Shown here piece after piece: positions 3,001 to 64,000 of a stretch of DNA of 64,000 nt. Below the pieces are notes generated by a model, which was not told where the DNA came from, did no database searches, and saw nothing but the letters and a program-made list of their open reading frames with translations. The position numbers and the translations under genes were made by a program. The stretch spans positions 5,952,001 through 6,016,000 of the forward strand of contig CP158635.1 of the NCBI GenBank assembly GCA_050273025.1, given 5' to 3'. Positions within the stretch are counted from its first letter, which is position 1. Each line of letters opens with the position of its first letter. The stretch is from Cenococcum geophilum. Taxonomy: Eukaryota.

Positions 3001-4199
3001 TACCCCTAATCCGGCATAGAACCACCAGAACCTATTAATAAGAAACTACTATATAGAAAACGCCTTAAGATACTACTTGCTAACTAGCATATAGACTATA
3101 TAAAAAATCTACTCGACTACTATAAGGGAGAAATGGCCTGGGCTTAAGTAAAGTAGGCCTACTTTGCCGACTGTTATAGAACGCTACCACTAGAGATGCG
3201 TGTTAGCAACTGGGTATAGCTAGATATATGTAATATCTCTATGTAGAGGCCTATAAAGTCACTCGATTATAAGAACTTTAGCCCCTACTTAATTAAACGA
3301 GTTATTAATAGGGGAGCCGCATATAAGCTAGAGCTCCCGCCTACCCTAGCCACCCGTGGGATATGGCCTGTATTTTACCTATAGCTACTACACCTTTACT
3401 AGCCTAACCCCTTACTAGGGTAGACACAGCCCAAACCCCTACTAGTATTAATTTAAGATAAGAACGAAGACGAGAACTATAAGGAGTAGACCATTAAACG
3501 AATTATTAACTCTAAATACTTTAGTAAAGGCAGAGGACGACGGCTCTACTACAGAGCTATATATATAGGATTTGACATAAATTAGCTAAAATAGTAACTA
3601 TAGGAAGACTTTAAAAATGTAAAGGATCTAATTAGCAACTTTTACTACGCGAACCTATAGAAACTGGGCCTAAGCAGAGATTTTATACCTAATCCTCTAT
3701 AGGAGCCCTTATAGAGTTAAACCGTTATATATTACTATATAGGGGCAAATTGCCATTAGATTGCCGTTAGATTGCGGTAAAGTGCGATTATATAACCGGA
3801 ATATTGTTAAGATGTCCAGGAACTTTAACCGGCGGTTAAAGTTATCTAATTAGTTAGATTTTTAGATGCCAAGCCTTATTACATAATATTATTTTAAGCC
3901 TTTAGTAATACCCCCCTTTCTTCTTTTCTATACCCTAAGTGTCCCTTTTATATGTATATAGTAACCACAGCGTCGCCGGAGCTCCGCCTCTATAGGAGGG
4001 GGGGTAGTGTTACGGAACCCCACCGCAGGGGCCTCCATAGGAGAGCCCCGTGCTCTCGCGTATACCTCGCGTATAGCTTATGTCAGCTACGCGTAGGTAT
4101 ATCACCTCCTTACGCCCTTAACCCTTACGATCGATCGCGCAATGTCTTATAGACTCCTCGAATACATACGTCTTGTAGCCACTGCCCCGTCCTGTAACA
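1..4199 (+). mobile_element. RIP-inactivated Ty3/Gypsy chromovirus retrotransposon (3' part: pol to 3' LTR), element G1
   Basis: Degenerate pol in Gypsy order: RT (YLDN/DIL at ~1123), RNase H, integrase (~2350-2950), chromodomain-like segment (~3480-3690). Polypurine tract AGGAGGGGGGG at ~3994-4004 precedes the LTR. Many TAA/TAG stops typical of RIP. Confidence 0.93.
4008..4199 (+). repeat. 3' LTR of G1 (192 bp)
   Basis: Starts TGTTAC, ends GTAACA (terminal inverted repeat), immediately after the PPT. Confidence 0.9.
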
Positions 4200-16000: not shown

Positions 16001-16659
16001 GATTTCTATAAATAGGCGAGATTACGTATACTATGGCGGAGTTTAAGAACCAAACGACCTTCCTAGCAAAAAAGGCCACCTGGTATAATATCACCTTTAT
16101 ACCTAGTAGGATAATATTCCGCCTTAAATAGAGTAAAGCTAATAAGTAATACTAGGGCGTTAATATCGCTATTACGGCGGTAGGCGGCCTATTATACCCA
16201 GTCGCTACTATAATAAAGCTATTTAATAGGGACCCTTAACCCCTTAACTCTCCCTTATTTAGTCTTAATAGTAAACCCTTTACCTCTCTAGGGGTTTGCA
16301 AGATCCTTTCCTCCTATCTAGTAGCTACTAGGATTAACCTAAGTAGCTACTTAAACCACTCCTTCCGCTAGGGCGCTGCTTGGTTTACTAAAGATTTAGG
16401 GTGTTTATATTAGCAAATTTAGTAGCTAGGTTGGTAGTTATTAGAAGCCCTTTGCTTATATATTAGAACTAAGACTACTAACCTCCGTCGCCTTAACTCT
16501 TACTTCTAGCGTAGTATGCCTCTCTTAGCGTAAGGATTACTAGGTAGTAGGTTAAGATATTAAGACGGCCGCTAAGGCGCTAATAGTAAATAAGCTAATA
16601 GTAATTTTCTATACCGGGCATAGAAAATCCTAATTGGTTAGCTTATAACTTAGGGTCTA

Positions 16660-17821: not shown

Positions 17822-18046
17822 TATTACAGCACTGGCAGAAAGCGGCAGCTATAGTAGACGTTATAGTAGATATAGGGCTTACGTGACTTTTATGTGACTA
17901 GGGATCGTATCTAACTCCTCGCGTTACTACTTATCCTTTCCTTTCCTTTTCCTTAGCTTTAGATTCTCGTTTATAGACAATCCAATTATATAGGCTTGCG
18001 CGACCCTTTTGCCGTACTTACATCTTAATTAACTAAGTCGCTAATA
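17822..18046 (+). repeat. 5' LTR of G4 (225 bp)
   Basis: Direct repeat of 26009-26233, differing mostly by transitions. Confidence 0.93.
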
Positions 18047-21000
18047 TTATCTAAAGTTTAAACCACTCTTTCTTCCTAAAAAGGAACTTAAATATATCTA
18101 TAAGACTATAAATAGGACCCTAAGGACATTACTAGGACTAAGGAAAGAACCTAAAGGAAAAGAATAGAACCCTAAGGAAAGGACCTATAAGACACGCATA
18201 GACTAGAACCCCTAAAGAGATTACCTAGAATTACCTAATACCCTAGCACTATACTACAAAATATAGTAGTATCTTAAGCAGCTATAGGATCCGCAAACAC
18301 CTTAGATAAGGAGATAATTAATATCTTAACCCCCTAAGCGGAGCTCGTAGCAGCCAATGCCGAAATTAAGCGGCTATGAGAACTGCTTAAACCTAGAGAT
18401 ACCCCTATATCTAGCGATGACCTATTAGACAGACTCGCTACGGTCCTTAAGGCCCTAGCCTAATATATAGTATTAGTATTGTTATGGTCTATAAAGGTCG
18501 CGGATCCCCTATTGCTTATAGACAGAGCCGACCCTATATTTAATAATTGGAAGCTTTAATTATAGAATAAGCTTAAAGTTAATGCGGACTACTTCCCTAC
18601 TACTTAAGCTAAAATAGCCTACGTCTTCGGCCGTACTAGCGGAGACGCCTAAACGTACCTACGTCCGTAATATGCTATAGACTTAGTAGACCCTTTTATC
18701 TTAGAAGAAGAAATAATTAACTACCTATCTTCTATCTATAAGGACCCTTTTAGGGTATAAAACGCCCGCCTTAGCTATAAAAGTCTAAACATAAAAATAA
18801 TGGAGACCTTTTTAGCCTTCTAGACCCGCTTCTTATACCTAGCCGGATAAGCCTAGATTCCCTAGGAAGATCTACTGCTAGACCTCTTTAATAAGCTTAC
18901 CTTAGACCTATAGCGGGCCGTATTACTAGCTTTTACTACTATATAGATGTTAAAAGAACTTATAAACTACTGCCTGGCCATTAACTAAGGCCTCTATTAA
19001 ATTAAAGTACGAGCTAACCGGATAAAGGCTAGGAATCCCTTAAATTAAGCTATAAGTAATATAAGAACGGCCTATAATACCCTAGTATAACCCGCAACGC
19101 CTACTACACTAGCCGCCAACCTAGTAACTAGCCGTGTAGCTAGCCCTACCGCGGGCTAAGCGTTTACTCAGCCTATCTACAGCGACCCCTATATATAGGC
19201 CCTTAGCGATTAAGGGGCTTGCTTCTTATATAGTTAAAAAGGCTACCCTATAAGGAATTACCTAATAAAGGTAAAAGTAAACGAGGTCCTATTAATTTAG
19301 AAGAATAGTATAGAGTTAGCAAAAGAGGAACCCTAGAGAAAGACTTCTCTCTAGGGTTAAAAGGGATTAATATATTATATATTAATCTAGGTTAGCTAGT
19401 TAGTAGAAGAAGCTGCACTATCCCTTATACTTTATTTCGCAATAGATACTAAGTTTTAACCTCTACCTTAGCTAACTTAGGAGTAAACGCCTTTATCTTA
19501 ATTAATATAAAGTGCGCTATAAAACTAGCTAACTTTTTAAATATACCTTTAGAAGAACTACCTAAGCTAATTCCAATTTATGGGTATAACGGATAGGTGG
19601 GACCTCCTATTATAACAATCTTATAGATCTACCTCCGCGTAGATAGACGAAGGTAATATAACATCCCCTTTCTTATTACGGATCTTAGGAGCTATAATAT
19701 GATTTTAGGGAGGAAATAGCTAGCCTATTTAGGCTTATAGCTTAACGTATAAAGTAGACGGCTTATCTAGCCCGAAACCCTACCCCTAACCCCTTCTTTT
19801 ATAAAAGAAATTAGTATTATAATAGAGAACCTTATGCAACCCTAGATTAATACTATCTACTAGGCCGATGCTATATGTAAAGACTAGGCCTTTAAGAAGG
19901 ATATACAGCTTAACCCGCAACGGATCCGCATATTACGCCGCCCCTAGACTTATATTACGCCACCCGCACTAAAGACTTAGGAAGTTGGTAGTGACCTATC
20001 TAAGTTCCTAATGGAGAACTTAGGCCCTACGCAGCTATAAAGAAAGGCTAGGAATATTGGACGATATACTAAACAGATAAACTAGAAGGATAACTTACGG
20101 AAAATAGAATGCGAGCTAAGGAAGACTATAAACCCTATACCGCAAAATACGGCCCAATAAATATCCGTAAAGAAACCTACGAACCTCCTACCAGTTAATA
20201 TCTACTGTATTAGCGCTATAGGATTCTACTAGAACTTGGTTTAGCCGAATACCGTTACCTTTATAACTAGCTTATATAAAATCAATTAAATAATTAAAGA
20301 AAAAGAGATATTAGCCTAAGATAAAGACAAGCTTATAGATAAGGAGCTAGTAGAATGGAAACTACCCTATTAGTACTAAGAGTTTAAGGACGTATTCTCT
20401 AAGGCAGTATTTAATATACTCCCACCCTACTAACCATATGACTATAAGATTAAGATTAAACCAGATAAGGAAAACGTCCTTGGCTATACCCCCCTTTATA
20501 AATAATCTATTGCCGAATTATAGGCTACTAAGTAGTATATTATAGATAACCTAGTAAAGGGGTTTATTAAGCCTAATTAGGCCCTATTTGCCTCCCCTAT
20601 TCTCTTTATAAAAAAGCTAAACAGAGGACTTTATTTCTACATTAATTACTATAAGCTTAATAATATAACCCGCAAAGACTATTATCCGCTACCCCTACTA
20701 AATAAGACGCTGGCCCGAATAAATAGAGCTAAGGTATTTATAAAGCTTAATATCCGTTAGGCCTTTTACTAAATTAGGATAAACCCGAGATCTATAAACC
20801 TTACTATATTTCAGACTTAATACGGATTGTATAAATATAAAGTACTCCCTTTTAGACTAACTAACGGACCTACTACGTACTAACAATATATAAATAATAT
20901 ACTCTTTAACTACCTTAACAACTTCTATACAGCCTACCTAGATAATATTATAATTTACTTGGAAAATAAGTTAGAATACAAAGAGCACGTCTATAAAGTC

Positions 21001-22854
21001 CTATAACGGCTCTATAAGGCTGGCCTTTAGGCCAATATTAAAAGGTTAGAGTTTAGTATAAAGCAAATAAAGTACCTAGGGTTTATTATTAGTATAGATG
21101 GAATTAAGGCAGACCTAGAAAAGACGGCTATAATTAATTAATGGGAACCACTACGGACCGTAAAAGGGATATAGTTATTTTTAGGCTTCTATAACTTCTA
21201 CCAACGCTTTATTAAGAACTATAGCAGAATTACTTAGCCCCTTAGCCGCCTTACTATAAAGAACTAGCCCTTCTACTTTAATACCGTATATAGGCAGGCT
21301 TTTAATAAGCTTAAAAAACGACTAGTCTCTACTCCCTTACTCGCCCACTTTAACCTAAAACGGCCCTTAATGCTAGAAACCGATGCCTTAGATAGTATTA
21401 TTGCTAGCGTTTATTCCCAGAAGCAGATAGATGAAGAGTAGCACCCTATTACTTACTACTTAAAGACTATAGTAGATGCTAAGCTAAACTACCCAATCCA
21501 TAATAAAGAAATATTAGCTATTATCTTTAGCTTCTAGCACTAGCGAGTATAGCTAGAAGGGACCCCTAAGCCTATCTAAGTAGTTTTAGATTATAAGGCT
21601 TTAGAATATTTTATAATAATAAAAGCCCTTACGGCCCGGTAAGTGCGCTAGGCGGATACCCTATCTTAATTCCACTTCCTAATTATATATAAGCTAGGCA
21701 CTATTAACCGTGCGGACGCTCTTATAAGGCGTAAACAGGACCTAAATAACTAGATAGCCGCGAAGATCTTATTACGGACCTAGACGCTACTATAACTAAA
21801 GCACCTTAACCCTTAGATACGGGAAGAACTAAGTACTAAATCTTTAAGCGCTAAGATATATCCTATTAACCCTGTGGAATTTAACCTTATTAATAAACTA
21901 CTATAATCAAACTGCATAGACCCTTCTCTACAGAAGTACCGCGAAAAGGCAAAGGATATTAGCAGCCTATAGTCCCTTAAAAATGGACTACTTAAGTATT
22001 AGGAACGGCTAGTAGTAGTAAAAAAACAGAACTTATAAACCCGGCTTATTACCAAAGCACATACCTAGGTCTTTACGGCTTACCCTAGAAAAAATAAGAC
22101 CTATAAGATTATTAGTAACCGTTACTACTGGCCCGGAATAGTTATGGATATTAACCGTTATATATAGAACTATAACGACTACCATAGGTCTATAATTCCA
22201 CGAGATAAGACCTTAGGACTATTAAAGCCACTCCCAATACTAGAGCGCCCCTAGTAGTATATCTCTATAGACTTCTATAAACTACTAGTAGACCGTAACG
22301 GGTACGATATAGTTATAATCTTAGTTAACCGTTTTAGTAAACGCTCTTTCTTAATCCCCTATTATAAGGATATTAATGCTAAAGAGGCGGCTTAACTATA
22401 TATCTATTACATCTACTAAATTTATAAACTACTAAATACTATTATATCGGACCGCGGACCGTAGTTTATATCGGCTTTTTAGAATAAGTTTACTTAAATC
22501 CTAAAAATTAGGCTAAAGCTTTTTATAGCATACTACCCCTAGATAGACAGTTAGATAAAGATTATAAATTAATACTTAGACCAGAGACTTTAGCCCTTTA
22601 TTAACTACTTCTAAGATAACTAAGGCAAACTGCTACCTCTAATAGACTATACCTAGGCGACCCTACCTTATAACTTTACGGGATTTATACCTATCTAACT
22701 AGAAATAGGGTATCTACTATAAATAAGCTTTAACTAGGATAGACTAAAAGGACTACGGACTATACGCAAGAAACTGTCTTATAGGGAAGCCTAGCACATC
22801 GGGAAAATATTCGCAGGATGAGATTTAAGTAGACTTTGGTTTTCGCGTTTCGCG

Positions 22855-23220
22855 TAATTAACATACAATTTAACTAACTTAACACGCAATTAACTAACTT
22901 AACACGTAGTTGACCTACTTAATATACAATTTAACTAACTCGACACGCAGTTGACCTACTTAATATATAATTTAACTAACTTAACACGTAGTTAACCTAC
23001 TTAACATATAATTTAACTAACTTAATACGCAGTTAACCTACTTAATATGCAATTTAACTAACTTAATACGCAGTTAACCTACTTAACATACAATTTAACT
23101 AACTTAATATGCAGTTAACCTACTTAATAACTTTAAAAGCTAACTGTATATCCTTTAACACGCAGTTAACCTACTTAATAACTTTAAAAGCTAACTATAT
23201 ATTTCTTAACGTGCGATTAA
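22855..23220 (+). repeat. ~20/21-bp alternating minisatellite (CGACACGCAGTTGACCTACT / ..CAATTTAACTAACT)
   Basis: Visible tandem copies with RIP variants. Confidence 0.85.
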
Positions 23221-23307
23221 GGTAAAGTTATATACTATATATTTAACTATTATATATAATCTTATATAATCTTATACAATCTTATACAATCTTATAGTCT
23301 TACTACT

Positions 23308-23701
23308 TAGAGGCTCTGCACAAGGCTCTACACGAAGCTCTGCGTACAGAGGCTCTATATAAAGCTCTGCGCATAGAGGCTCTGCACAAAGCTCTGCATG
23401 AAGCTTCGCATAAGGCTCTACACGAGGCTCTACACGAAGCTCTGCGTATAGAGGCTCTGCACGAAGCTCTGCACAAAGCTCTGTACGAGGCTCTGCGCGA
23501 AGCTCTGCACGAAGCTCTACACGAGGGTCTGCGCGAGGGTCTGCGCGAGGGTCTGCGCGAAGCTCTGTGTATAGAGGCTCTGCACGAGGCTCTGCGAGAA
23601 GCTCTGCGTACAGAGGCTCTGCACGAGGCTCTGCGCGAAGCTCTGCGTACAGAGGCTCTACACGAAGCTCTGCGTACAGAGGCTCTACACGAAGCTCTGC
23701 A
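23308..23701 (+). repeat. 12/17-bp minisatellite (GAGGCTCTGCAC / GAAGCTCTGCGTACA)
   Basis: Dozens of GCTCTGC-core tandem units. Confidence 0.9.
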
Positions 23702-23832
23702 TCGGGTCCCCGCTATATTCCCAATAGCCTCTACACGTGCCTCTACCCTATGTAGCCACCTTATTTTTTACCCTTCCTTCCTTCTTTATATCCTCCCTAC
23801 CTAGGGAGGCACCAGAACGGCAGCCAGCAGAG

Positions 23833-24622
23833 GACCGTTGCTAGAACTAGACGACCGTCGCCAGAACCAGATGACCGTTACCAGAACCAGACGACCATCG
23901 CCAGCCAGACGACTGTCGCCAGAACCAGACGACCGTTGCCAGAGCCAGATGATCGTCGCTAGAACCAGACGACCGTCGCCAGCTAGACGACCGTTACCAG
24001 AACTAGACGACCGTCGCCAGAACCAGACGACCGTCGCTAGCCAGACGACCGTTACCAGAACTAGATGACCGTTGCCAGAGCCAGACGACCGTCGCTAGAA
24101 CTAGACGACTGTCACCAGAACCAGACGACCGTCGCTAGAACTAGACGACTGTCGCCAGAACCAGACGACCGTTACCAGAACCAGACGACCGTTGCCAGAG
24201 CCAGACGACCGTTGCCAGAGCCAGACGACCGTCGCTAGAACCAGACGACCGTCGCCAGCTAGACGACCGTTACCAGAACTAGACGACCGTTGCCAAAGCC
24301 AGACGATTGTCGCCAGAACCAGACAACCGTCGCCAGCCAGACGACCGTTACCAGAACCAGACGACTGTTGCTAGAGCCAGACGATTGTCGCCAGAACCAG
24401 ACGACCGTTACCAGAACTAGACGACCATTGCCAGAACCAGACGACTGTCGCTAGAACCAGACGACCGTTACTAGCTAGACGACCGTTACCAGAACCAGAC
24501 GACCGTCGCCAGAACTAGACGACCGTTACCAGAACTAGACGACCGTTGCCAGAGCTAGACGACCGTCACTAGAACCAGACGGCCGTCGCCAGAACTAGAC
24601 AACCGTTGCCGTCGCCAGATGA
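23833..24622 (+). repeat. 20-bp minisatellite (CCAGAACCAGACGACCGTCG), roughly 40 units
   Basis: Head-to-tail copies with occasional 16-bp variants and no spacers. Confidence 0.92.
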
Positions 24623-24679
24623 TAACGACTAGCCAGCCAACACTATAAACGATTCGATTGATTAATCGAATTAAGGTAG

Positions 24680-25021
24680 CACAGACAGGTAGGCATAAAT
24701 AGGTAGATGCTAACGGGTAGGTAGATATAGATAGGTAGGTAGATGCAGATAGGTAAGCAGATATAGATAGGCAGGCAGATGCAGATAGGTAAGTAGATGT
24801 AGATAGGTAAGTAGATGTAGATAGGTAGGCAGATATAGACAAGTAGATATAAATAGGTAAGCAGATACAGATAGGTAGGTAAATGCTAATAGGTAGGTAA
24901 ATATAGATAGGTAGGCAGATGTAGATAGGTAGGCAAATGCAGACAGGTAGATGTAGATAAGTAGGCGATATAAATAGGTAGGCAATGTAGGCAGGTAGGT
25001 AAGTCAATAGGTAGATAGGTA
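24680..25021 (+). repeat. ~18-bp purine-rich minisatellite (AGGTAGGCAGATGCAGAT)
   Basis: Tandem degenerate copies; the source of the spurious YLPI/YLST ORFs. Confidence 0.85.
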
Positions 25022-26008
25022 GAAAAGAACCATCGCTGTATTATATTAAATTATCTAAAATAATAATATTTATTTTGCTAGCCTTATAAATAGCTTTAAA
25101 ATAGCTTTTATTTATTTAAAATATATTATTAGTATAAAAGAGGTAAATATAATTATGGTTGCCAAATGCGCAGATTGCTAGCAGGTTGCGCGCAGGCTAC
25201 GCGCAGGCTGCGTGTCAAAAAAACACGACATAGGCTAGTCGGTCGAGTTGCCAAATGCCCTCAACTGCGCGCCAATTGCGTCAACCACCAACCATTGAGG
25301 CCATTTAAAGGGTACCATATTTTGCCGATGCAGTACGCTAAGCGCTTAGAGGAAGCCTAGACGGTAGCCCGTACAAATCTAGAAAAGGCCTAAAAATTAA
25401 TAAAATAGCAGGCCAATAAGCATAGGCGCGAGCCCGACTTTACCGTAGGTAATATAGTCTAGGTTATAATAAAGAACTAGAAAACGGAACGGCCTAGTTA
25501 TAAGCTTAATTATTAAATAGCAGGACTGTATAAGGTCCTTAAGAAAATAGGCAACTTATATAAAGTAGAGCTCCCAGATTTAATTAAGGTTTACCCTATT
25601 TTCTCGCTGGATAAGCTACGGAAGGCTATAAACGACCTATTAGCTAAATAAAAGAACAAACCCCCCCTGCCGATCTAAGTTAATAGCGATAATAAATAGG
25701 AAATTAAGGAGATACTGACCTATAAGCTAGTAAGGAAAACGCTAAAGTATCGTGTTAGTTGGAAAGGCTATAACCTAGATCTTACCTAGTACCCTATATG
25801 GAACTTTATCGGCAGTCCCCATAAGCTTTAAGAATTCTATAGCCGTTACCCTAATAAACCGGGACCGCTAAAGTACCTAGACAAATGGATAAAATACTAG
25901 TATAATAAAGATGATAAGCTACCAAAAGAGTATAAAGATAAGAACGCCCTATAGGTATAATACGGACATATAAAGCCTAAGGGCAGGCTTTTGCGGAGGG
26001 GAGGGTAA

Positions 26009-26233
26009 TGTTACAGCACTGGCAGAAAGCGGCAGCTATAGTAGACGTTATAGTAGACGTAGGGCTTACGTGACTCTCACGTGACTAGGGATCGTATATA
26101 ACTCCTCGCGTTGCTACTTATCCTTTCCTTTCCTTTTCCTTAGCTTTAGATTCTCGTTTGTAGACAATCCAATCGTACAGGCTTACGCGACCCTTTTGCC
26201 ATGTTTATATCTCGATTGACTAAGTCGTTAACA
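26009..26233 (+). repeat. 3' LTR of G4 (225 bp)
   Basis: TGTTA...TAACA after the PPT, followed by TSD ATAGG. Confidence 0.93.
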
Positions 26234-27000
26234 ATAGGATAGATTAGTAAGAGAGACAAATCTTTAAGAAGGTAAGGCCTTTAAAATTATAAAGACTATA
26301 TACTATAGGCACGTACCTCTAATATATAACCGGTAACTATTTAAAGGGCGTTTAGAGGTTATCCTAAGGGCAATCTAAGGTGTCCGCAATAATATCCCTT
26401 ATATTACTCCCCCTTCTTATAGTTAGCCCCTAATTACTATTACCTTATAGTAGGGAGATTATAAGGACTTATCCTAAAAGGGGTTTAGAGAGATATTAGA
26501 GAGGTATTAGTATACTACTATATATTATCTATCTATCTAACCCCTACTTTAAACTTCTAAAAAACCTTAATAAGGAAAAAATATAACTAGAGAAAAGATG
26601 TAAGAATTACTAGGAGACCTATTAGAAGCCTACTAGAAGTATATTAGTAACTACCTAGGCTAATATAAGGACTTTTATATAACTCTACTTCTAAGCCTTT
26701 ATACTAGTCTATAATTAATTATAAGTATTATAGGTAATTTAGTATTTTAGTATAGTTCCGTAAAACCTTTTAGTATAGGATTTAATATATAGAGCCTTAG
26801 CTTACTATTATCTTTAACTGCTAAGATATAGTTCATAATCCTTTTCTTATAATCCCCTATATTACTAATATATTACTCCCGCATTTACCCTTTAGGCTAT
26901 TAAATGCGGTTAAGGTATTAATTAGTTATTTAAAGAGACTTATCTCTTAAGATTTAGTATATATACTTTTAAATCTAGTGGTTCTATACCGTATATTTAG
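26234..27000. repeat. Unclassified RIP-mutated relic (continues 17587-17821)
   Basis: Strong TpA excess; joined to 17821 through the G4 TSD. No domain recognised. Confidence 0.5.
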
Positions 27001-28299
27001 CGTGGACCTCCGATAACTTGAGGGAGGGTGTTGGGGCGAACCTCTTGGCAGGAATCTGACCAATCAGACAACTTCGACCGGCGGTCGAAGTTCCTTGAAA
27101 TCTCTTCAACCACCTATATAGAAAATAAGCAATACACAGAGTTTTAGCTCCATAACCTCAATTCAACAGTACCCCCATTGGATTTAAGGATACGTTGTTG
27201 TTGACCTTCACTTCGCGAACGCTCAGAGTTAGGGAAGAAGAAGAGCTAGTGGTACCCTTTTATTGTTGTTGTTGATCCAGGCAGCCCAAATATCTTGAAG
27301 TTACCAGTTTCTACAGTCTATCCTTCATATTTGTTTGGCCCTGGTATGTTCTCCGCAAAAGCCCTAGGAGTAGTTTGATCATATTGGCCAGGTAATCCCG
27401 ACATTATGATCACTTTGGGCTATTACCACCTTGACGGCTGAAGCCAAGTTCGGAAGTTTAGCTACTCTACGCAGGAACGGTTTGGATACACCACGCGTAG
27501 GTTTATCAGTTTTGCATATGAACGATGTTACTGGAAGGTAGAAACGAATAGAAGTTAACATTTCAGATTGTGTTGACGACCTTTTTAATCATCAGTCTTA
27601 ACAAACCTACGCTGTTCCTCCTGCTTTGATCCGAATTCACTATTAATGGTATCCATTGCACGCCTGAGCAATGGCGTGAATACCAAGCTAAGAGTGAGGA
27701 AGAGTGCAACAGTGAGTTCAACGTCCTAAATAGCTTCGCTAGGGCATTGAATAATTTAGTAGTTGTGGTTACAAAGGCAAAATACTGACAAGGATATACA
27801 CCACTAATTTCAAACCAGGAACATGAACGTGTTTCAATTCATGCCTTTGAGACGTTGACATTAAGAGCCACGCCCCAGTTACGTAAGAAGAGATTAAATA
27901 TCTCGTATGCTATCTCTACTGAAATTTCAGAACGCCCCTAATGCATTATATTACAAACACACCCGCGTATTCCGACTTTAGGCACGCTGAATGTTGTACA
28001 GAGTTACCCAGCCTCCGGTAAACTCGGATTGCAATCCATTCCCACACCATTCCCACCATTGAGTAACATAACGTGTGGGAAATATCTGGCCTGGAGGACC
28101 GTTCTTCATCCAATAATATAACCCATACAGTCCGCCGCAGACATTTCCAGCTAAAATCCAGCAATCATTTGATGTAGGGACAGTTACTTATTCCCGCCGC
28201 GTTTCTGCTCGAGGAATAGGACTTGCTTCCGTACTGCAAAAAGAAAAGAAAATATTAGCGACAAAGTCCTAAACAGTATTAAAACAGTCAGACACGAGT

Positions 28300-28900
28300 G
28301 TGCTGCCTATCCCAGCCATTACTCATCGCAAACTTGAGCATGCAACATGACCTCCCATCCATAACCAAACAGTCTGTTTCGGCACCACGAAACTGCGGCC
28401 CCCCCCCTCAAACGGCATCCATTGGTTGCTGGTCGCATCCAGACCGTCGTGTTCTAGGGCCTTCGAGCGTAGCGAGAGAAAACGTACCGATCGGATCATA
28501 CTTAAGCATGCTAAGCGGTCTGTGTGCGCGCGGTCGCATAAGCGTTCTGTAATAGCCAGTCATGGCCATTGAAATGAGGCGCACCATGATGGTGCGGGAC
28601 TTGGCTGCGCACAGTAAGTGTTAGTATACCAGACATGTCAAGCGATTGTTGTTGCGTTGAGAGAGTAATTGAGGATTTGAGGAGTGATGACGCTCCGTGG
28701 GCGGGCTAGGGAACAAGGCCAGGAGCACCTGCCGGGAGAGGCAGCTTGGTAGGCGAGGATTGGTACCTTTTTTAGCCATTGCAGCAGAGGAGGTAGGTCG
28801 TTGATGGAAACAAAATGAGGAATTTGAGTTGGGACGTGAGGGATCGGCTCGGCGTGATAGTGGCAACCCATCGGCGCATATATCAGCACTAGTGAAACGC
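28300..28900 (-). pseudogene. Possible heavily degraded cytochrome P450 3' remnant
   Basis: Across frameshifts, in P450 order: 'VSINDLPPL', 'AAMAKKG..PRLPSCLSRQV', '[13 protein letters not shown]', 'YDP.GTFS', '[11 protein letters not shown]' (FxxGxRxC-like, Cys lost). Confidence 0.35.
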
Positions 28901-54898: not shown

Positions 54899-57800
54899 TA
54901 TTAGTTACACAAGGGGGATATCACGTAGCTACGGTTCGTAGATAGTATAATAATTATTATTGTTTTTATTCCAAGAAAGGGGAAGGGTAAGGAACCTAAG
55001 GTTCCTTACCACACTAGTGCCGCAGCAACACGTAACGGCAACTTACCTCACATGACGGCAATTTACCGCATATGGCGGCAATTTACCCTATTCCCAACAC
55101 TAGCAACTCTTCTTTTTATAGTTGCCATCTATAAACACCTATAGATTGCTACTATACAAAAGTATAAAGCTAAGGGGAAGAAGGAAAAGAGGAAGGGTAT
55201 TAGGGGGTTAACGCAAAGACAAATGGGCTACTAAGGCGCTAGTAGTAAGCAAGCTAATGGCGATTTTTTATACCGGGTATAGAAAATCCTAATTAGCTAG
55301 ATTAACAAATGGCGTCAGCAAAACTCTATACCGCCACCCGAATTAATTAGGCACGGCGCTCTTAATAAGAATTTAACTAATTAGACAACTTTAACTAGCT
55401 ATTAAAGTTCTATAAAATTTTAACTTCTTTAAATTTCCCTTTTAACCTAACCTTTAACTTATATACGTAGAGTATTTATATTAATAAATGTCTTTAGTGC
55501 CTTATTTAGGTTTACCTTCGTTATTACATCTACTAGGTTATCTTAGCTATTAATCTATTAAATCTTAAAGAGTTCTTAACACTTATAGGATTACTAAAGT
55601 GCCATAATATCGATTATAAGACGCTTCTCCTTTATAGTGCTAAGCTTAACTAAACACTTATAAAGGGAGTATAAGTCGGTGCACACAATTATAGAAATAG
55701 TAGGAATTTTAAGTTAATCCATAATTATCTTAAGGGTAGTTCTAATTATAATTGCTATATTAACTCCGCTAACTATTCCATATATCTCTAACGCTAGAAC
55801 GCTTTAAGTAACGCGTTTACTCTTAGTTAAGCTCTAATAGATAAGGTTGCCATAGATTATAAAGTTATTCTCTCTAGTAGATTTATTTATAATAATAATC
55901 TTATATCCTAACTAAGAGCTAAAATCTTTATTATTAGTAAACGATCTATTAATAAACACAAAGATCTTAGCGGTGGGGAGATTAATAGGCATATAGAGTA
56001 GCCCTTAGTTAAGATAATTTATCTACTAGGAAAAGCGCTTATTTAAAGCAAAAACGTCATCCTTAGTTAGTTCCTAGTATTAGGCGGCAATAGAGAGATT
56101 AAAGGAAGCCTTAGGTTAATAGATAAAAGTAATATAAGCCCCGCAAGCGCGTTATTCCACATATCCTTATTTTAGAAAATTAACATTAATAACGTTAATC
56201 TTCTTACCTTAACCCTTCTAGCGTAAAGTAATAGAATCCTTATTTATAAAAAGGATACATCTATTAAAGAGTAATAGTATTATTAAATTAAGTCTTTCCT
56301 TTAGCTTTACTATAAGATTTACCTTTACTAGCTTATCTTCTTTAAGAGCTAAGAATTAGTCGTCTCCTAAGATAATTATATTATCAGTTTATATACTAAT
56401 AATTCTAAATAGAGTTCCTGTAGTTATAATAAGGAAGTAGGGATTAAATATAGAAGTAGTTATTAAAAGCTTTTCTTTATAGTGCTTGCTATAAGTAGCC
56501 TATTAATAAGTTCCTGCCTCTACAATTCCGTATAATAGCTTAAGTATAACTATAATCGTGTCTTTAGGATACTAGTGGCGAATTTACTCTAAAAGGTATG
56601 CCAATATTAAGCGCTAAAGGTGCATCTCTAATTAGGTGTAGGCTTAAGTAATATTTTATAAATAAACTGCCATTCTATTCTTTATTAAGGAGGGAGCTAA
56701 TATAATAATAACTCACTAACTAGCTCGTTAAATTATAGGAGATTATATAAGAATTATCTCTTTACTATTATTATTATAACCTTAGATAATAAGCCTTAAT
56801 TTCTTAAATAGGGCGTTAGTAGCTTTGCCCTTAATCTCGTTAACTATTCTTAACTTAAAGATATAAACTCTATTAAACTTAGTAGGGTTATATTTCTTAA
56901 ATTTAAAGACTCCTCTTATAATAAGACCGTCAATCTCCTACTTATCAAATACTTAGAAAGGAGCTCCTAGGGTTATAATACAACCTTCCTTTTAAAGCTA
57001 TTTTACAAGCTTAAAGTTAGCCTTCTCTTTAGCTATTATAAAGGCCATTAATAACTTAACTCTACTCTCTATAGCAGCAACAAATTACTCTTTAAAATTA
57101 ATAAGATATTAGCGATTTTATAATCCCTTTAGGCGACCTCTACCGCGTCATAATTGCGGCACGTCTACTACAATTATATTAGAATTATAGTCGCCTTCTA
57201 GGGCATATTAATCGTGGTTCTCCTCTAGGGCATCTTCTAAAGCATCTTTTAGGGCATCCTGCAAAGGCTTGGAACTATTATCTTTATAGTAGGGCCTAAT
57301 AACGGTTAAACGGAATTAAGTAGGTCTATAGGGCATCTAAAGAGTATAAGTTTAACTATTAATTATAATAAGTTTATATAGGCCTAACCATCCTCCCTTT
57401 TTACGCTATACCCGTACTTTAGATTAGAGTGGTAAATTAAGCATAGTTAAGGTATTTAGGCCATTTCTTATTCCTAGTGCGTTATTAACCTAGTGCGTAG
57501 CGTATAGATATTATACCTCCTTTATTACTTTATAAATAGCCTTAGCTTATTATACAATAGAGGGAGATAGTAGAGAATTATTAGTTATTTAAGGGTAGGC
57601 GTTAAAGACTAGTAATATAGGTATGAGTTTATTTAGGCCAGCGGAATTATTAATAGCTTTAACAGCTATTTATAAGGTAAGTTCTTCGCTAACGTCCTTT
57701 AGTTTTAAAGAGATAATCTTATATACGTAGCGTAATGGTGTATAATATTACTCTACTTTTTTAATACTATTATATGCCTTAATAGGGACTTCCTTAACCT

Positions 57801-59897: not shown

Positions 59898-62800
59898 TGT
59901 TGGGAATAAGGCAAGCGGTCGTTACGTGTCGTCACGTGTCGCCGCGGCACTAGCGTGGTGAGGAACCTTAGGTTCCTTACCTACCCCCTAATTCTAAACA
60001 ATAAGCTTTATCAACTAACATTTACTGTGTCTACTTGAGTAGCATTGGTGAGTTACCTTATAACACCAACACTAATTAGTGGTTAAATACACAGTCAACT
60101 ATAGAGCAGCTAGGTTATCAATAGAAGAGATAGTCTTATACAGGGGTGCCATATACGCTTATATGGAATGGATCCCAGCAATACTATGCTACCTTAAACT
60201 TGCGGAAAACTAGTAATAGAAGTGTTACTAAGTACTAGGAGATACTAAGTTGTGTCTATTACACAGAACAATTACGTTTATAAAGATTTGGTTAAGTACT
60301 TTAGGTTAAAAGTGTTACTAAACCTAAGGTCTTAAGTTGACGTCTAAAACGCGTCAAACAACATCTTAAATTACCTACCTTTGGACAGTAAACCTACGAG
60401 ATCCTATAAAACCGAAAATCCTACCTACCTTTGACGTATAACACCTCGTTAATTCTACCTACTATAGCGTTAACCTATCTAAAGAAGTACGAGAAAGATA
60501 TTAACCTAGAGATATAGGACAGAGCCGTAACTAACTTTATAACCGCTAAGTAACAGGACCTAAATAGATTCTTAGTATACCGTATGGAATACTATAAAGA
60601 CAGCGAATACGATAATACCGCGCTATAGTATTATATGAAGGAGGATTTTATTAGATAGATAAAGGAAATATAGGTTCCTATAAATAAAGATATTATATAG
60701 GACTTCCGTAACTTCCTTTAGAAGTATAAAGTATTTGTCCCTATAGATAGGGGTAGTATTAGGGACAACATTTAGGAATACGTTATTAATGTAAAGGAAG
60801 AGCATAAATAAACTCTATAAGAGATTAAGCACTAACTACGCACTATAAAGAAGCTTAAATCATAATAAAACCCAAGTAATACACCACTAGAGACACGTTC
60901 TAACTCTATTGCTCTAGGCACGAGTTCTAACATTCTATATCCATCGCCTCTACCTCTATTTTTAACTCCCCTGTATCAACTAGCTTAACCTATAGTCTTA
61001 ATTAATAACCCCTAATAAGCGCAAGATCCCCTTACTTTGCGGTTTAATAACCTTTAAACTCCGCCAACTAGATCTATATTACTATTATAGCCTATAATAT
61101 AATGCAGCTAAATACTAATTGGAGGCACCTTAAAAATGCTTATAGAGCTTATAAAGCTCTATTTAGAATAGGAGAAGAAGTTTGGCGAAGAACTGTATAA
61201 TATCCTTAATTCAAAGTTACGTATTTTCTACGACTGTTGCCAAAAGGTTGGACTAGAACCCAATTAATACCATATTACTTATTTAGTTATGCTTAAGGGC
61301 CGAGCTAGTACCTTCTATTATAATTATTTAGTAGGAAAAGGATATAATTTTAATTAAATAATATATGAAATAAGATGCCACTTTAAAATAGAGGAGAATA
61401 AGCAGTAGTATATATTGGAGTAGAGAGAGACTACCTTTCTAAGAATTATTACTATAAACCTAGGTGCCTCTTAACTTAATTATCTTTAAAAGCTCTTTAA
61501 TTAACTCTAGATAATTTAGCGTGGTTTATCCAAATTATATTAAGAGGACTTTAGCCTATATAATTAAGTTATTAGCGTATACTAAGGTGTTAAAGAATAT
61601 AACCTTACTTTCTTTAACCCTATAAGTACTTACGAAGGAGTATATACTTAATTAAGATCCTCTATTAGCACCGCCCTATACTCTTAAAAAGTATAGCAAT
61701 TTAATACCTAACTCTAACCTACTTTAATTAACCTAGCTAACTAATACGATTATAACTGGACTAATTAAATATATGGTGGTCGTAGTAGGGGATATAGTAG
61801 AGGGTATAATTAACGTTAACTATAAAGCAATCGTGGAGGTCCTTGTGAAGGTTTATTTCGCAATAATTAGCAAAAAAAATGCTATGTTTGTAAGAAGCCA
61901 AATTACTAGTTAACTAGACACCCCCTTAATAGACAAAAGGAGGTATATAATAAGTTTCGCCAGAGCGCATAAAACATTAGAAATTAAGAAGTTATTATAG
62001 CCTACTTTTAAAGCTTCCTAGTTTAATATAAAGGCGAAGAAGATCTTAAGGGTGAGATTAATAAGGCTAAATAGCTCCTTATAGATATAGAAATTGAGGA
62101 CTACTTTCCCAACTAATACTTTACCGAGTATAGTAAGGTAAATAGCGCATAAACCGTTGCTGTCCTTAATAACTAATCTATGCTCTATTCTGTTATAAGG
62201 TTAGATATCTTTAATAAGCTAAAGGAAAGTTCCGCGTTCTTCTTTAACAATAAATACTTAGTAAACGTCTTTTATAGTATTATGCCAGATACTAGAGCCG
62301 CAGGAGTATCTATAGTAGGAAAACCTTAAGTCTAAGCTCTTTAGTAGCTTAATAGTTCTATCTAGATTAACTAATTAATGGTAGGCTAATATATAATTCG
62401 CTTTGGTAAGGGTACTGTAATTTCTTTTAGTATAATTAAGGTCTAAACCCCGTTAGGATATATTACTTTCTATATTATTCCTATAAATACCCTATTCCTA
62501 TTCTGCATCTAAGATATAGATAAATTAGGCGTTAAGCTTAACAACCTTAAAAATATACTTATTTAAGGAGATAATTGGGTGCCCATTATACGCAAGTGGG
62601 GTTACCCTTGGTTGCTCCTTTAATAGCCAGAAAGAAGCGTTACTTAGAGTTACTTAACTAAGTTAGAGCTACGTTAACTACATTATCGTTTTAGCTACCT
62701 ATCCGTTTACCAACTGCTTAGGGTTCTTTAACAAGTAGGTTATAAAGTTAAGGTTAAAGCAATTAAATATCTTATAAAGTACTGCTATTACTGCCAAATG

Positions 62801-64000
62801 AACTAGAAGTCCCCTAGCCAATTTAAGTTTACCCTTAAAGATAACTATAACTTTAACTTCTATATTATTATAGATATTATATATCTTAGCGGCAAGCTAG
62901 TACTCTAAGTTGTTAACTTCTTAACCTCCTTCTAAGCCGCACGCTTTTTAAAAGATATATTAGCTAGGAACGTATAGGATACTCTTTAATTATACTAGAT
63001 TAATATCTACCTAGGACCCCCTAATTAAATTATTTATAATATAGAAAAGAACTTCTTATCTATAGAGTTTTAATAATAGGTAAAGGCAATAATAATTAAG
63101 GTTAAGGAAGTCCCCGTTAAGGTATATAATAGTATTAGAAAGGTAGAACGATACTATACGCTATTACGCCGCGTATATAAGATTATTTCTTTAGAACTAG
63201 AGGGTGCTAGCGAAGAGCTTATCCTATAGATGGCTGTTAAGGCTATTAATAATACCGCTAGCCTAGATGGGCTCGTACCTATATTACTAGTTTTTGGCGC
63301 CTACCCTTAAATAACTAATAATTCTTTACTATCTCCCTCTATTATATAATAAGCTAAGGCGATTTATAAGGCAATAAAGGAGGTGTAACGTCTCTACGCT
63401 ACGTGCTAGGTTAACGACGCACTAGGAATAAGAAATGGCCTAAATACCTTAACTATGCTCGATCTGCCACTCCAATCTAAGGTACGCGTATAGCGTAAAA
63501 AGGGAGGATAGTTAAGCCCATATAAACTTATTGCAATTAATAGTTAGACTTATACTCTTTAGATGCCCTATAGACCTACTTAATTCCGTTTAACTATTAT
63601 TAAGCCTTACTATAAAGATAACAGTTCCGAGCCTTTATAGGATACCCTAGAAGATACCCTAGGAGATACCCTAGAGGAGAACTATAATTAACGTGCCCTA
63701 GAAGGCAACTATAACCCCAATATAACTGTAGTAGATACGCCGCAACTATGACGCGGTAGAGGTTGCCTAAAGGGATTACGAAACCGCTAATACCTTATTA
63801 ATTTTAAAGAGCAACTTATTACCGCCATTAAGAATAGAGTTAAGCTATTAATGGCCTTTATAACAGCTAAAGAGAAGGCTAACTTTAAGCTCGCAAAACA
63901 GCTTTAAAAGGAAGGCCGTATTATAACTTTAGGAGCTCCTTTCCAAGCATCTAATAAGCAGGAGATTAACGGTCTTATTGCAAAAGGAGTCTTTAAGTTT
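59898..64000 (+). mobile_element. RIP-inactivated Ty1/Copia element C2 (5' LTR 59898-60071), runs off the window
   Basis: LTR TGTTGG...CCAACA related to the C1 LTR. gag with CYVCKKPN(CW) at ~61880, protease MPDT(G)AA at ~62282, LH.RF(GH) at ~62680 and integrase. 62100-64000 is the reverse complement of ~56900-58800. Confidence 0.9.

Follow-up and report, generated by a model that had tools for sequence, protein, structure and literature searches.

A short CCAAT and palindrome cassette carried by both Gypsy and Copia retrotransposons of a fungal genome

We identified a cassette of 50 nt, M1, in at least seven lineages of LTR retrotransposons in a fungal genome: two Copia (one of them GalEa), four Gypsy and one without a detectable pol. 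Alignment of the copies allows us to show that they are of common descent and that M1 has been transferred across the Gypsy/Copia divide, including one replacement of a tract in a GalEa element by its Gypsy counterpart. Gypsy and Copia are customarily seen as separate lineages with unrelated non-coding parts, and M1 departs from that view: a tract can be traced from the 3' end of a Gypsy element into a GalEa Copia, and a single cassette occupies about 3,000 loci. Promoter motifs of LTRs, palindromic boxes and recombination between elements are each of a known kind; what appears to be new is the repeated exchange of M1 between Gypsy and Copia. A literature search, in which subscription journals were thinly covered, returned no report of such a cassette common to fungal Gypsy and Copia elements.

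The M1 cassette

The window, the 64-kb stretch of DNA analyzed here, contains three copies of M1 (Table 1). The cassette consists of a CTTGGC block, a CCAAT box and a pair of 10-bp inverted arms that flank a variable centre of 3–4 nt. An earlier sequence-only reading of the window had placed the cassette at these three positions, and both alignment and BLASTN recover it there (E = 1.3e-6 for the pair with the G1 copy and 1e-3 for the pair with the C1 copy). Its statement that the copies differ almost solely by transitions is also borne out. The unmutated copy and the reverse complement of the G1 copy are identical at 40 of 51 aligned positions, with 10 transitions, 1 transversion and one 4-nt insertion; with the C1 copy there are 34 identities, 16 transitions and 1 transversion. 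Judged from these alignments, the differences among the three copies match the pattern of RIP.

The genome-wide search proposed in the same reading finds M1 well beyond the window. Across the 178-Mb genome, a 35-nt pattern that allows for RIP is matched 2,980 times and its reversed control 0 times. A one-off capture by the window copies is ruled out, as M1 is present in 30 of 30 fetched copies of G1 and 30 of 30 of C1 (40 copies were scored for each family, from 1,884 and 2,985 candidates respectively, and 30 of each fetched). The CCAAT box is intact in only six of these G1 copies and two of the C1 copies, so M1 is not shielded from RIP.

The arms form a stable 10-bp stem on either strand (z about -2.5 to -2.7). 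The most frequent loops among 262 contexts are GCC (83), GGC (74), GTC (30) and GTGC (21). Compensatory changes in the arms, which the sequence-only reading had suggested looking for, did not appear: these contexts contain 0 paired and 6 unpaired arm transversions, a weak test given how little the arms vary. An Rfam search with M1 returned nothing near the gathering score, and a known RNA family was discarded as a candidate, the sole match being a chance riboswitch hit (E 9.2). Perfect M1 hairpins number 57 in the genome; all 15 that were examined are part of the retrotransposon contexts described here, and host promoters contain none of them.

Table 1. Features of the window and loci of the G4 composite
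Feature	Position	Strand	Remarks
M1, unmutated	27044..27094	+	From sequence and within-window BLASTN
M1 parts: CTTGGC block	27044-27049
M1 parts: CCAAT box	27060-27064
M1 parts: 10-bp inverted arms	27070-27079, 27083-27092
M1, RIP-mutated, 3' UTR of chromoviral Gypsy G1	3819..3873	-	Antisense to host
M1, RIP-mutated, 3' UTR of GalEa-type Copia C1	55361..55411	+	Host on minus strand, hence antisense
3' LTR of Gypsy G1	4008..4199	+	Polypurine tract (PPT) 3994-4004
3' UTR of Gypsy G2c, without M1	25890..26010	+	Element about 17824-26236
3' LTR of Copia C2	27029..27168	+	TG...CA; about 180 bp elsewhere
PPT of Copia C2	27020..27028	+	Same purine run before 11/30 LTR copies, the 3' LTRs
TATA-like box of C2 LTR	27115..27122	+	55 nt after CCAAT box; read from sequence; putative function
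M2 (two inverted CCAAT boxes around palindrome), C1 3' UTR	55246..55304	+
M2 copy in other, unclassified repeat, without M1	16587..16645	+
G4 composite	L301:1128-4300; L326-L327 (G000:C6:8679000-8693000)		Protein P0001

Host families and orientation

To tabulate host families, as the sequence-only reading had recommended, we took the first 30 of the 2,980 pattern matches by position. All lie in LTR lineages: G2 (11), G1 (6), G3 (5), C1 (5), G4 (2) and N5 (1), with none in C2. G2 has the RVT_1, RNase H, integrase and Chromo domains (Chromo E 2e-6) of a chromoviral Gypsy element. G1 has integrase and Chromo, the latter at an E of 6e-4, which is below the cut-off; G3 is Gypsy by similarity only, and G4 is a carrier of a Gypsy-like integrase. 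The Gypsy hosts share 24–31% amino acid identity in pol, and BLASTP between the pols of the two Copia hosts gave no match.

GalEa Copia elements are characterized, in the accessible part of PMC5445492, by KSRLVI, QTDD, CQPEA and ADxxTK motifs, a Conserved Hairpin Site (CHS) in place of the PBS and a 5-bp TSD, and the clade is given there as restricted to Pezizomycotina. With C1 as a fungal GalEa element, the host is probably a RIP-active filamentous ascomycete. C1 (L126) carries KSRLVI, QTDD, CQPEA and a VDxxTK variant of ADxxTK; a CHSeq1-like 9-mer follows the 5' LTR in 3 of 3 copies, and L095 has a 5-bp TSD. C1 is itself interrupted by a second GalEa subfamily copy, about 80% alike and inserted head-on (59927-64000 and L299); this copy, too, has M1 antisense in its 3' UTR, just past the end of the window.

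The G1 and C1 copies were said to have the same orientation relative to their hosts and to lie between the end of pol and the PPT, which is what we found. In G1, pol ends at ~3711, ahead of M1, PPT and LTR; in C1, on the minus strand, pol ends near 55430-55445, the PPT is at 55107-55117 and the LTR runs from 55099. The antisense orientation does not extend to all hosts, as three host lineages carry M1 in sense. Among the 30 unselected copies, 25 are antisense to the host pol, 3 are sense and 2 have no pol match, and M1 is also in sense in the C2 LTR.

M1 is absent from subfamily G2c (30 of 30 copies examined), which has at least 40 copies. The G2c element in the window is interrupted by an insertion with tandem arrays of about 20-40 nt units (22855-24641). 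N5 (L302:4343-7828) is a 3.5-kb LTR element with internal tandem repeats and no detectable pol; it carries M2 and M1 in sense before its PPT and is inserted in a G3-type Gypsy element.

A metagenome scan yielded at least 122 stretches with at least 124 matches among those listed. Among these matches are at least 97 C2 LTRs, at least 8 copies of G1, G2, G4 or C1d and at least 19 unrelated chance matches; the copies belong to the same families and are less mutated than the genomic ones. In viral contigs the M1 pattern had one chance match, and no pol relatives were found.

The copy at 27 kb lies in a Copia LTR

A genome search with 27020-27120 gave 338 candidates, of which the best 40 were scored and 30 loci fetched. 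The matching part of the fetched loci is about 180 bp long, opening with TGTTGG and closing with CAACA. In two elements such LTRs, 95–97% alike, are paired 5.4–5.7 kb apart around a Copia pol (PF07727, E 1e-29), so that C2 combines Ty1/Copia LTR termini with paired direct repeats around a Copia pol. The PPT precedes 11 of the 30 LTRs, and a PBS-like motif starting with GGTTAT, which we take to be a tRNA-Met PBS, follows 9 of them (scored by eye). A 5-bp TSD, as looked for at solo LTRs, is present at 4 of the 30 loci (scored by script). Because of the paired LTRs around pol, the PPT, the PBS-like motif and the TSDs, we read 27029-27168 as the 3' LTR of C2, preceded by its PPT and with M1 in its U3. 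This LTR lacks 36 nt near its 5' end, a deletion seen in reads, and the internal part of the element is gone; the repeat at 26250-27003 is truncated at this point and comes from a different family. The sequence-only reading had described this copy as unmutated at the point where an AT-rich nest gives way to normal DNA. It is unmutated, but it sits inside the C2 LTR and not in normal DNA.

Exchange between Gypsy and Copia elements

The core of M1 is nearly the same in the families compared. In the least-mutated copies, taken with the help of the metagenome matches listed, the 43-nt core agrees with the window copy at 43/43 positions in G4 and one G2a, 42/43 in G2a and G2b, 41/43 in G1 and C1c and 40/43 in C1d. 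The flanks of M1 have only 22–62% identity between families in global alignments. The blocks (CTTGGC, CCAAT, the arms, a downstream ACATCT-like block and often CACGTG) occur in the same order, with spacers that differ by family. Because the core is near-identical while pol has diverged and the flanks are unrelated, M1 must have been transferred. Vertical descent cannot give this pattern of sharing, and convergence is unlikely for the positions outside the motifs.

One transfer can be followed in detail. Members of the GalEa subfamily C1d (L132, L133, L270) have a C1 backbone with a 95-nt tract at M1 that resembles Gypsy G2a (91/95 identical, 3 transitions, 1 transversion) and directly follows a short match to the G2 polypurine tract. 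In subfamily C1a, the same M1 core sits in another tract. The C1d tract indicates that a Gypsy element was the donor and that the exchange was double; since C1d has both this 95-nt Gypsy tract and a remnant of a Gypsy PPT, exchange across the superfamilies is shown. The proposal that unrelated Gypsy and Copia elements exchange a portable cis-module is upheld by this tract and by the family-wide presence of M1 in G1 and C1.

A second cassette, M2, has 2,439 matches in the genome (control 0) and occurs both with and without M1. Its copies fall into two classes by their arms, with a G:C pair in one class replaced by C:G in the other (19 and 41 of 60 contexts). At one locus (L358), M1 is fused to M2 at their CCAAT boxes. 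The orientation of M2 to M1 is reversed when C1 is compared with G3, and that of the M2-M1 block to its host when G3 is compared with N5.

Other likenesses were noted at these 3' ends. The distal 3' UTR of C1 (55144-55245) is similar to a diverged LTR of the G2 type that has the same orientation (17934-17982, L104), with 76% identity over 50 nt and 63–65% over 119 nt, and the 3' UTR of G1 has motifs also found in the G2 and C1 LTRs. By their sequence these would be older exchanges.

M1 has passed among the LTR retrotransposons of the fungal lineage, probably by recombination at their 3' ends. This could occur by a double template switch between co-packaged RNAs or by ectopic DNA conversion that starts from the 45 bp in common, and the palindrome would permit inversions. 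Both routes, which we infer, fit the M1 data alike.

Possible function of M1

Whether M1 is a compact RNA-polymerase-II promoter or enhancer cassette of the LTR-U3 type is, in our view, an even call. The CCAAT box is a candidate Hap/CBC site and the CCG/CGG-centred palindrome beside it a candidate site for a dimeric factor. The accessible part of PMC5468973 gives CCAAT as a Hap site, GCCARG as a PacC site and CGG/CCG as a Zn2Cys6 site; the factors are assigned to M1 by consensus alone, and CCAAT and CTTGGC are frequent by chance. M1 would act as an upstream element in the LTR promoter of C2 and for the accessory ORF of G4, and in G1, G2, G3 and C1 as an orientation-independent booster of the adjacent 3' LTR or as an antisense promoter. 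Its orientation independence fits the binding of double-stranded DNA. The U3-promoter position upstream of a TATA box is found in C2 only (CCAAT at 27060, TATA-like box at 27115), and in G4 M1 lies about 260 nt before the start of the 1,041-aa accessory ORF. No clear TATA box was found after M1 in the antisense hosts. M1 would be helpful at most and not essential: the M1-free subfamily G2c has amplified well, which counts against a need for such a promoter. In most copies RIP later erased the CCAAT box.

In each of the 3 contig runs (summed over copies, unstranded), the 3' half of the LTR has a 3–5 times greater depth of RNA contigs. One stranded RNA library, from a diverged strain, has few LTR reads, mostly antisense, and no cluster of starts. 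A strong RNA signal was rejected as cassette activity, its source being the neighbouring bL33m gene. This gene, which encodes a mitochondrial ribosomal protein, is spliced and highly expressed (27880-28800, minus strand; introns near 28234-28487 and 28605-28766), and its 3' end is about 700 nt from the C2 LTR. In run X21, six RNA reads continue with other sequence upstream of 27176, which suggests a strain without this nest junction.

M1 could instead be a neutral or self-spreading passenger: a template-switching hot spot created by its 45-bp identity and hairpin would let it homogenize and hitch-hike without benefit. We regard this as unlikely, given that M1 has been kept in at least seven lineages, with its blocks retained where the spacers have diverged, and that its position in C2 and G4 is typical of promoters. 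Several observations speak for it nonetheless: the near-identity of the copies, the lack of paired changes, the repeated tract replacements and fusions at M1 (C1a/C1c/C1d, L358) and the success of G2c. Of 16 subfamily pairs, only 3 have a core that is better kept than its flanks at P<0.05; in this set the five G4 pairs are non-independent, and the C2 rows were selected with a pattern in which the arms are fixed. The 13 non-significant tests also favour a passenger, and the three significant pairs may reflect replacement instead of selection.

An element acting in the RNA, such as a hairpin near the PPT for packaging, dimerization, export or pausing of reverse transcription in several families, would account for the stable stem on both strands, for a loop that varies while the arms do not, for the constant location of M1 in the 3' part of the genomic RNA and for the paired arm swap in the sister cassette M2. 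However, the M1 arms have no compensatory change, and the asymmetric CCAAT and CTTGGC blocks are kept even though the RNA reads them oppositely in different hosts. Such an element is distinctly unlikely.

It is highly improbable that M1 is a tiny independent MITE targeting 3' UTRs, despite its inverted repeat and its presence or absence between G2 subfamilies: its edges have no TSD or terminal repeats, the ends of the shared tract differ per family, the 'empty' form has other sequence substituted for M1 where a MITE would leave a clean empty site, and the 15 hairpin loci examined lie in the same retrotransposon contexts. The end of a MITE was also ruled out, as own TIRs with a TSD, clean empty sites and free copies were not found among the loci examined.

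The idea that M1 is a chromatin boundary or insulator that stops RIP or heterochromatin has next to no likelihood and is largely refuted already. The unmutated window copy does lie at a RIP border, as the sequence-only reading emphasized in suggesting that M1 marks such borders. However, the RIP index (250-nt bins) drops at about 27001, at or before the start of the LTR and not at M1. As the unmutated copy is part of the LTR, the RIP border near 27 kb is simply the end of the element or nest. RIP is confined to one side at 13 of the 30 C2 LTR loci, but these are element ends, and solo LTRs lie in DNA unmutated on both sides. In the unselected set, 29 of 30 M1 copies are in DNA that is RIP-mutated on both sides and 1 is at a border, which is no enrichment, and M1 itself is mutated in most G1 and C1 copies. 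C2 LTRs carry few mutations even where the adjoining interiors are heavily mutated, with 1-4 differences per 100 nt in 10 copies chosen for their likeness to the unmutated one.

Comparison with known elements

A CCAAT box upstream of a TATA box is part of the general anatomy of LTR retroelements. M1 in C2 conforms to it, being in U3 with its CCAAT box 55 nt before the TATA-like box, but in five other lineages from two superfamilies it lies outside the LTR and is mostly antisense.

The RM boxes of Sireviruses are described, in the accessible part of PMC2829016, as palindromes with a CGG/CCG core that occur upstream of the LTR TATA box and of an extra ORF and are conserved amid diverged flanks. 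The M1 palindrome precedes the TATA-like box in C2 and the extra ORF in G4, a likeness in layout only. RM boxes are, in the same text, short, present in multiple copies per LTR and limited to one plant Copia genus, whereas M1 is fungal, 50 nt long, includes a CCAAT box, occurs once per LTR or unit and crosses from Gypsy to Copia.

The CHS, according to the part of PMC5445492 available, lies directly after the 5' LTR and only in GalEa elements. Like M1, it is a non-coding hairpin common to different families of one species, and C1 has its own CHS-like 9-mer. M1 differs in its sequence, its location at the 3' end and its presence in Gypsy and non-GalEa Copia elements, and is not a CHS. The mosaic ends described here are also similar to those arising from exchange between elements by reverse-transcription recombination and LTR swapping, as treated in the accessible part of PMC6894440.

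Implications

If M1 is a promoter module, one host signal could switch on unrelated families together, which may help explain joint expansions in this 178-Mb, RIP-active fungal genome. Gypsy and Copia might even form one exchange community at their 3' ends, in which M1 and M2 are selected, interchangeable regulatory modules that tie families to the same host signal and catalyse further cross-superfamily recombination, the non-coding module evolving as its own unit; this is possible, if somewhat doubtful. M1 offers a simple marker for measuring recombination between superfamilies. Caution is needed with repeat libraries, where shared 3' modules can merge unrelated families.

The G4 composite

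At all 5 loci examined, G4 is a composite of >13.5 kb that includes two tandem units of 5.4 kb, 77% alike. Each unit carries an integrase C-terminal stub, M1 and the 1,041-aa ORF. A search of 25 kb at one locus did not reveal the composite's 3' end. An Atlas search with the domain of the ORF returned nothing, and a profile search of PDB sequences returned nothing significant. The protein family that includes the ORF comprises 609 clusters and has a PhyH-like 2-oxoglutarate/Fe(II) dioxygenase fold. The HxD motif is present in 72 of 80 aligned members of this family, and both HxD and the distal His have been lost in three G4-type copies.
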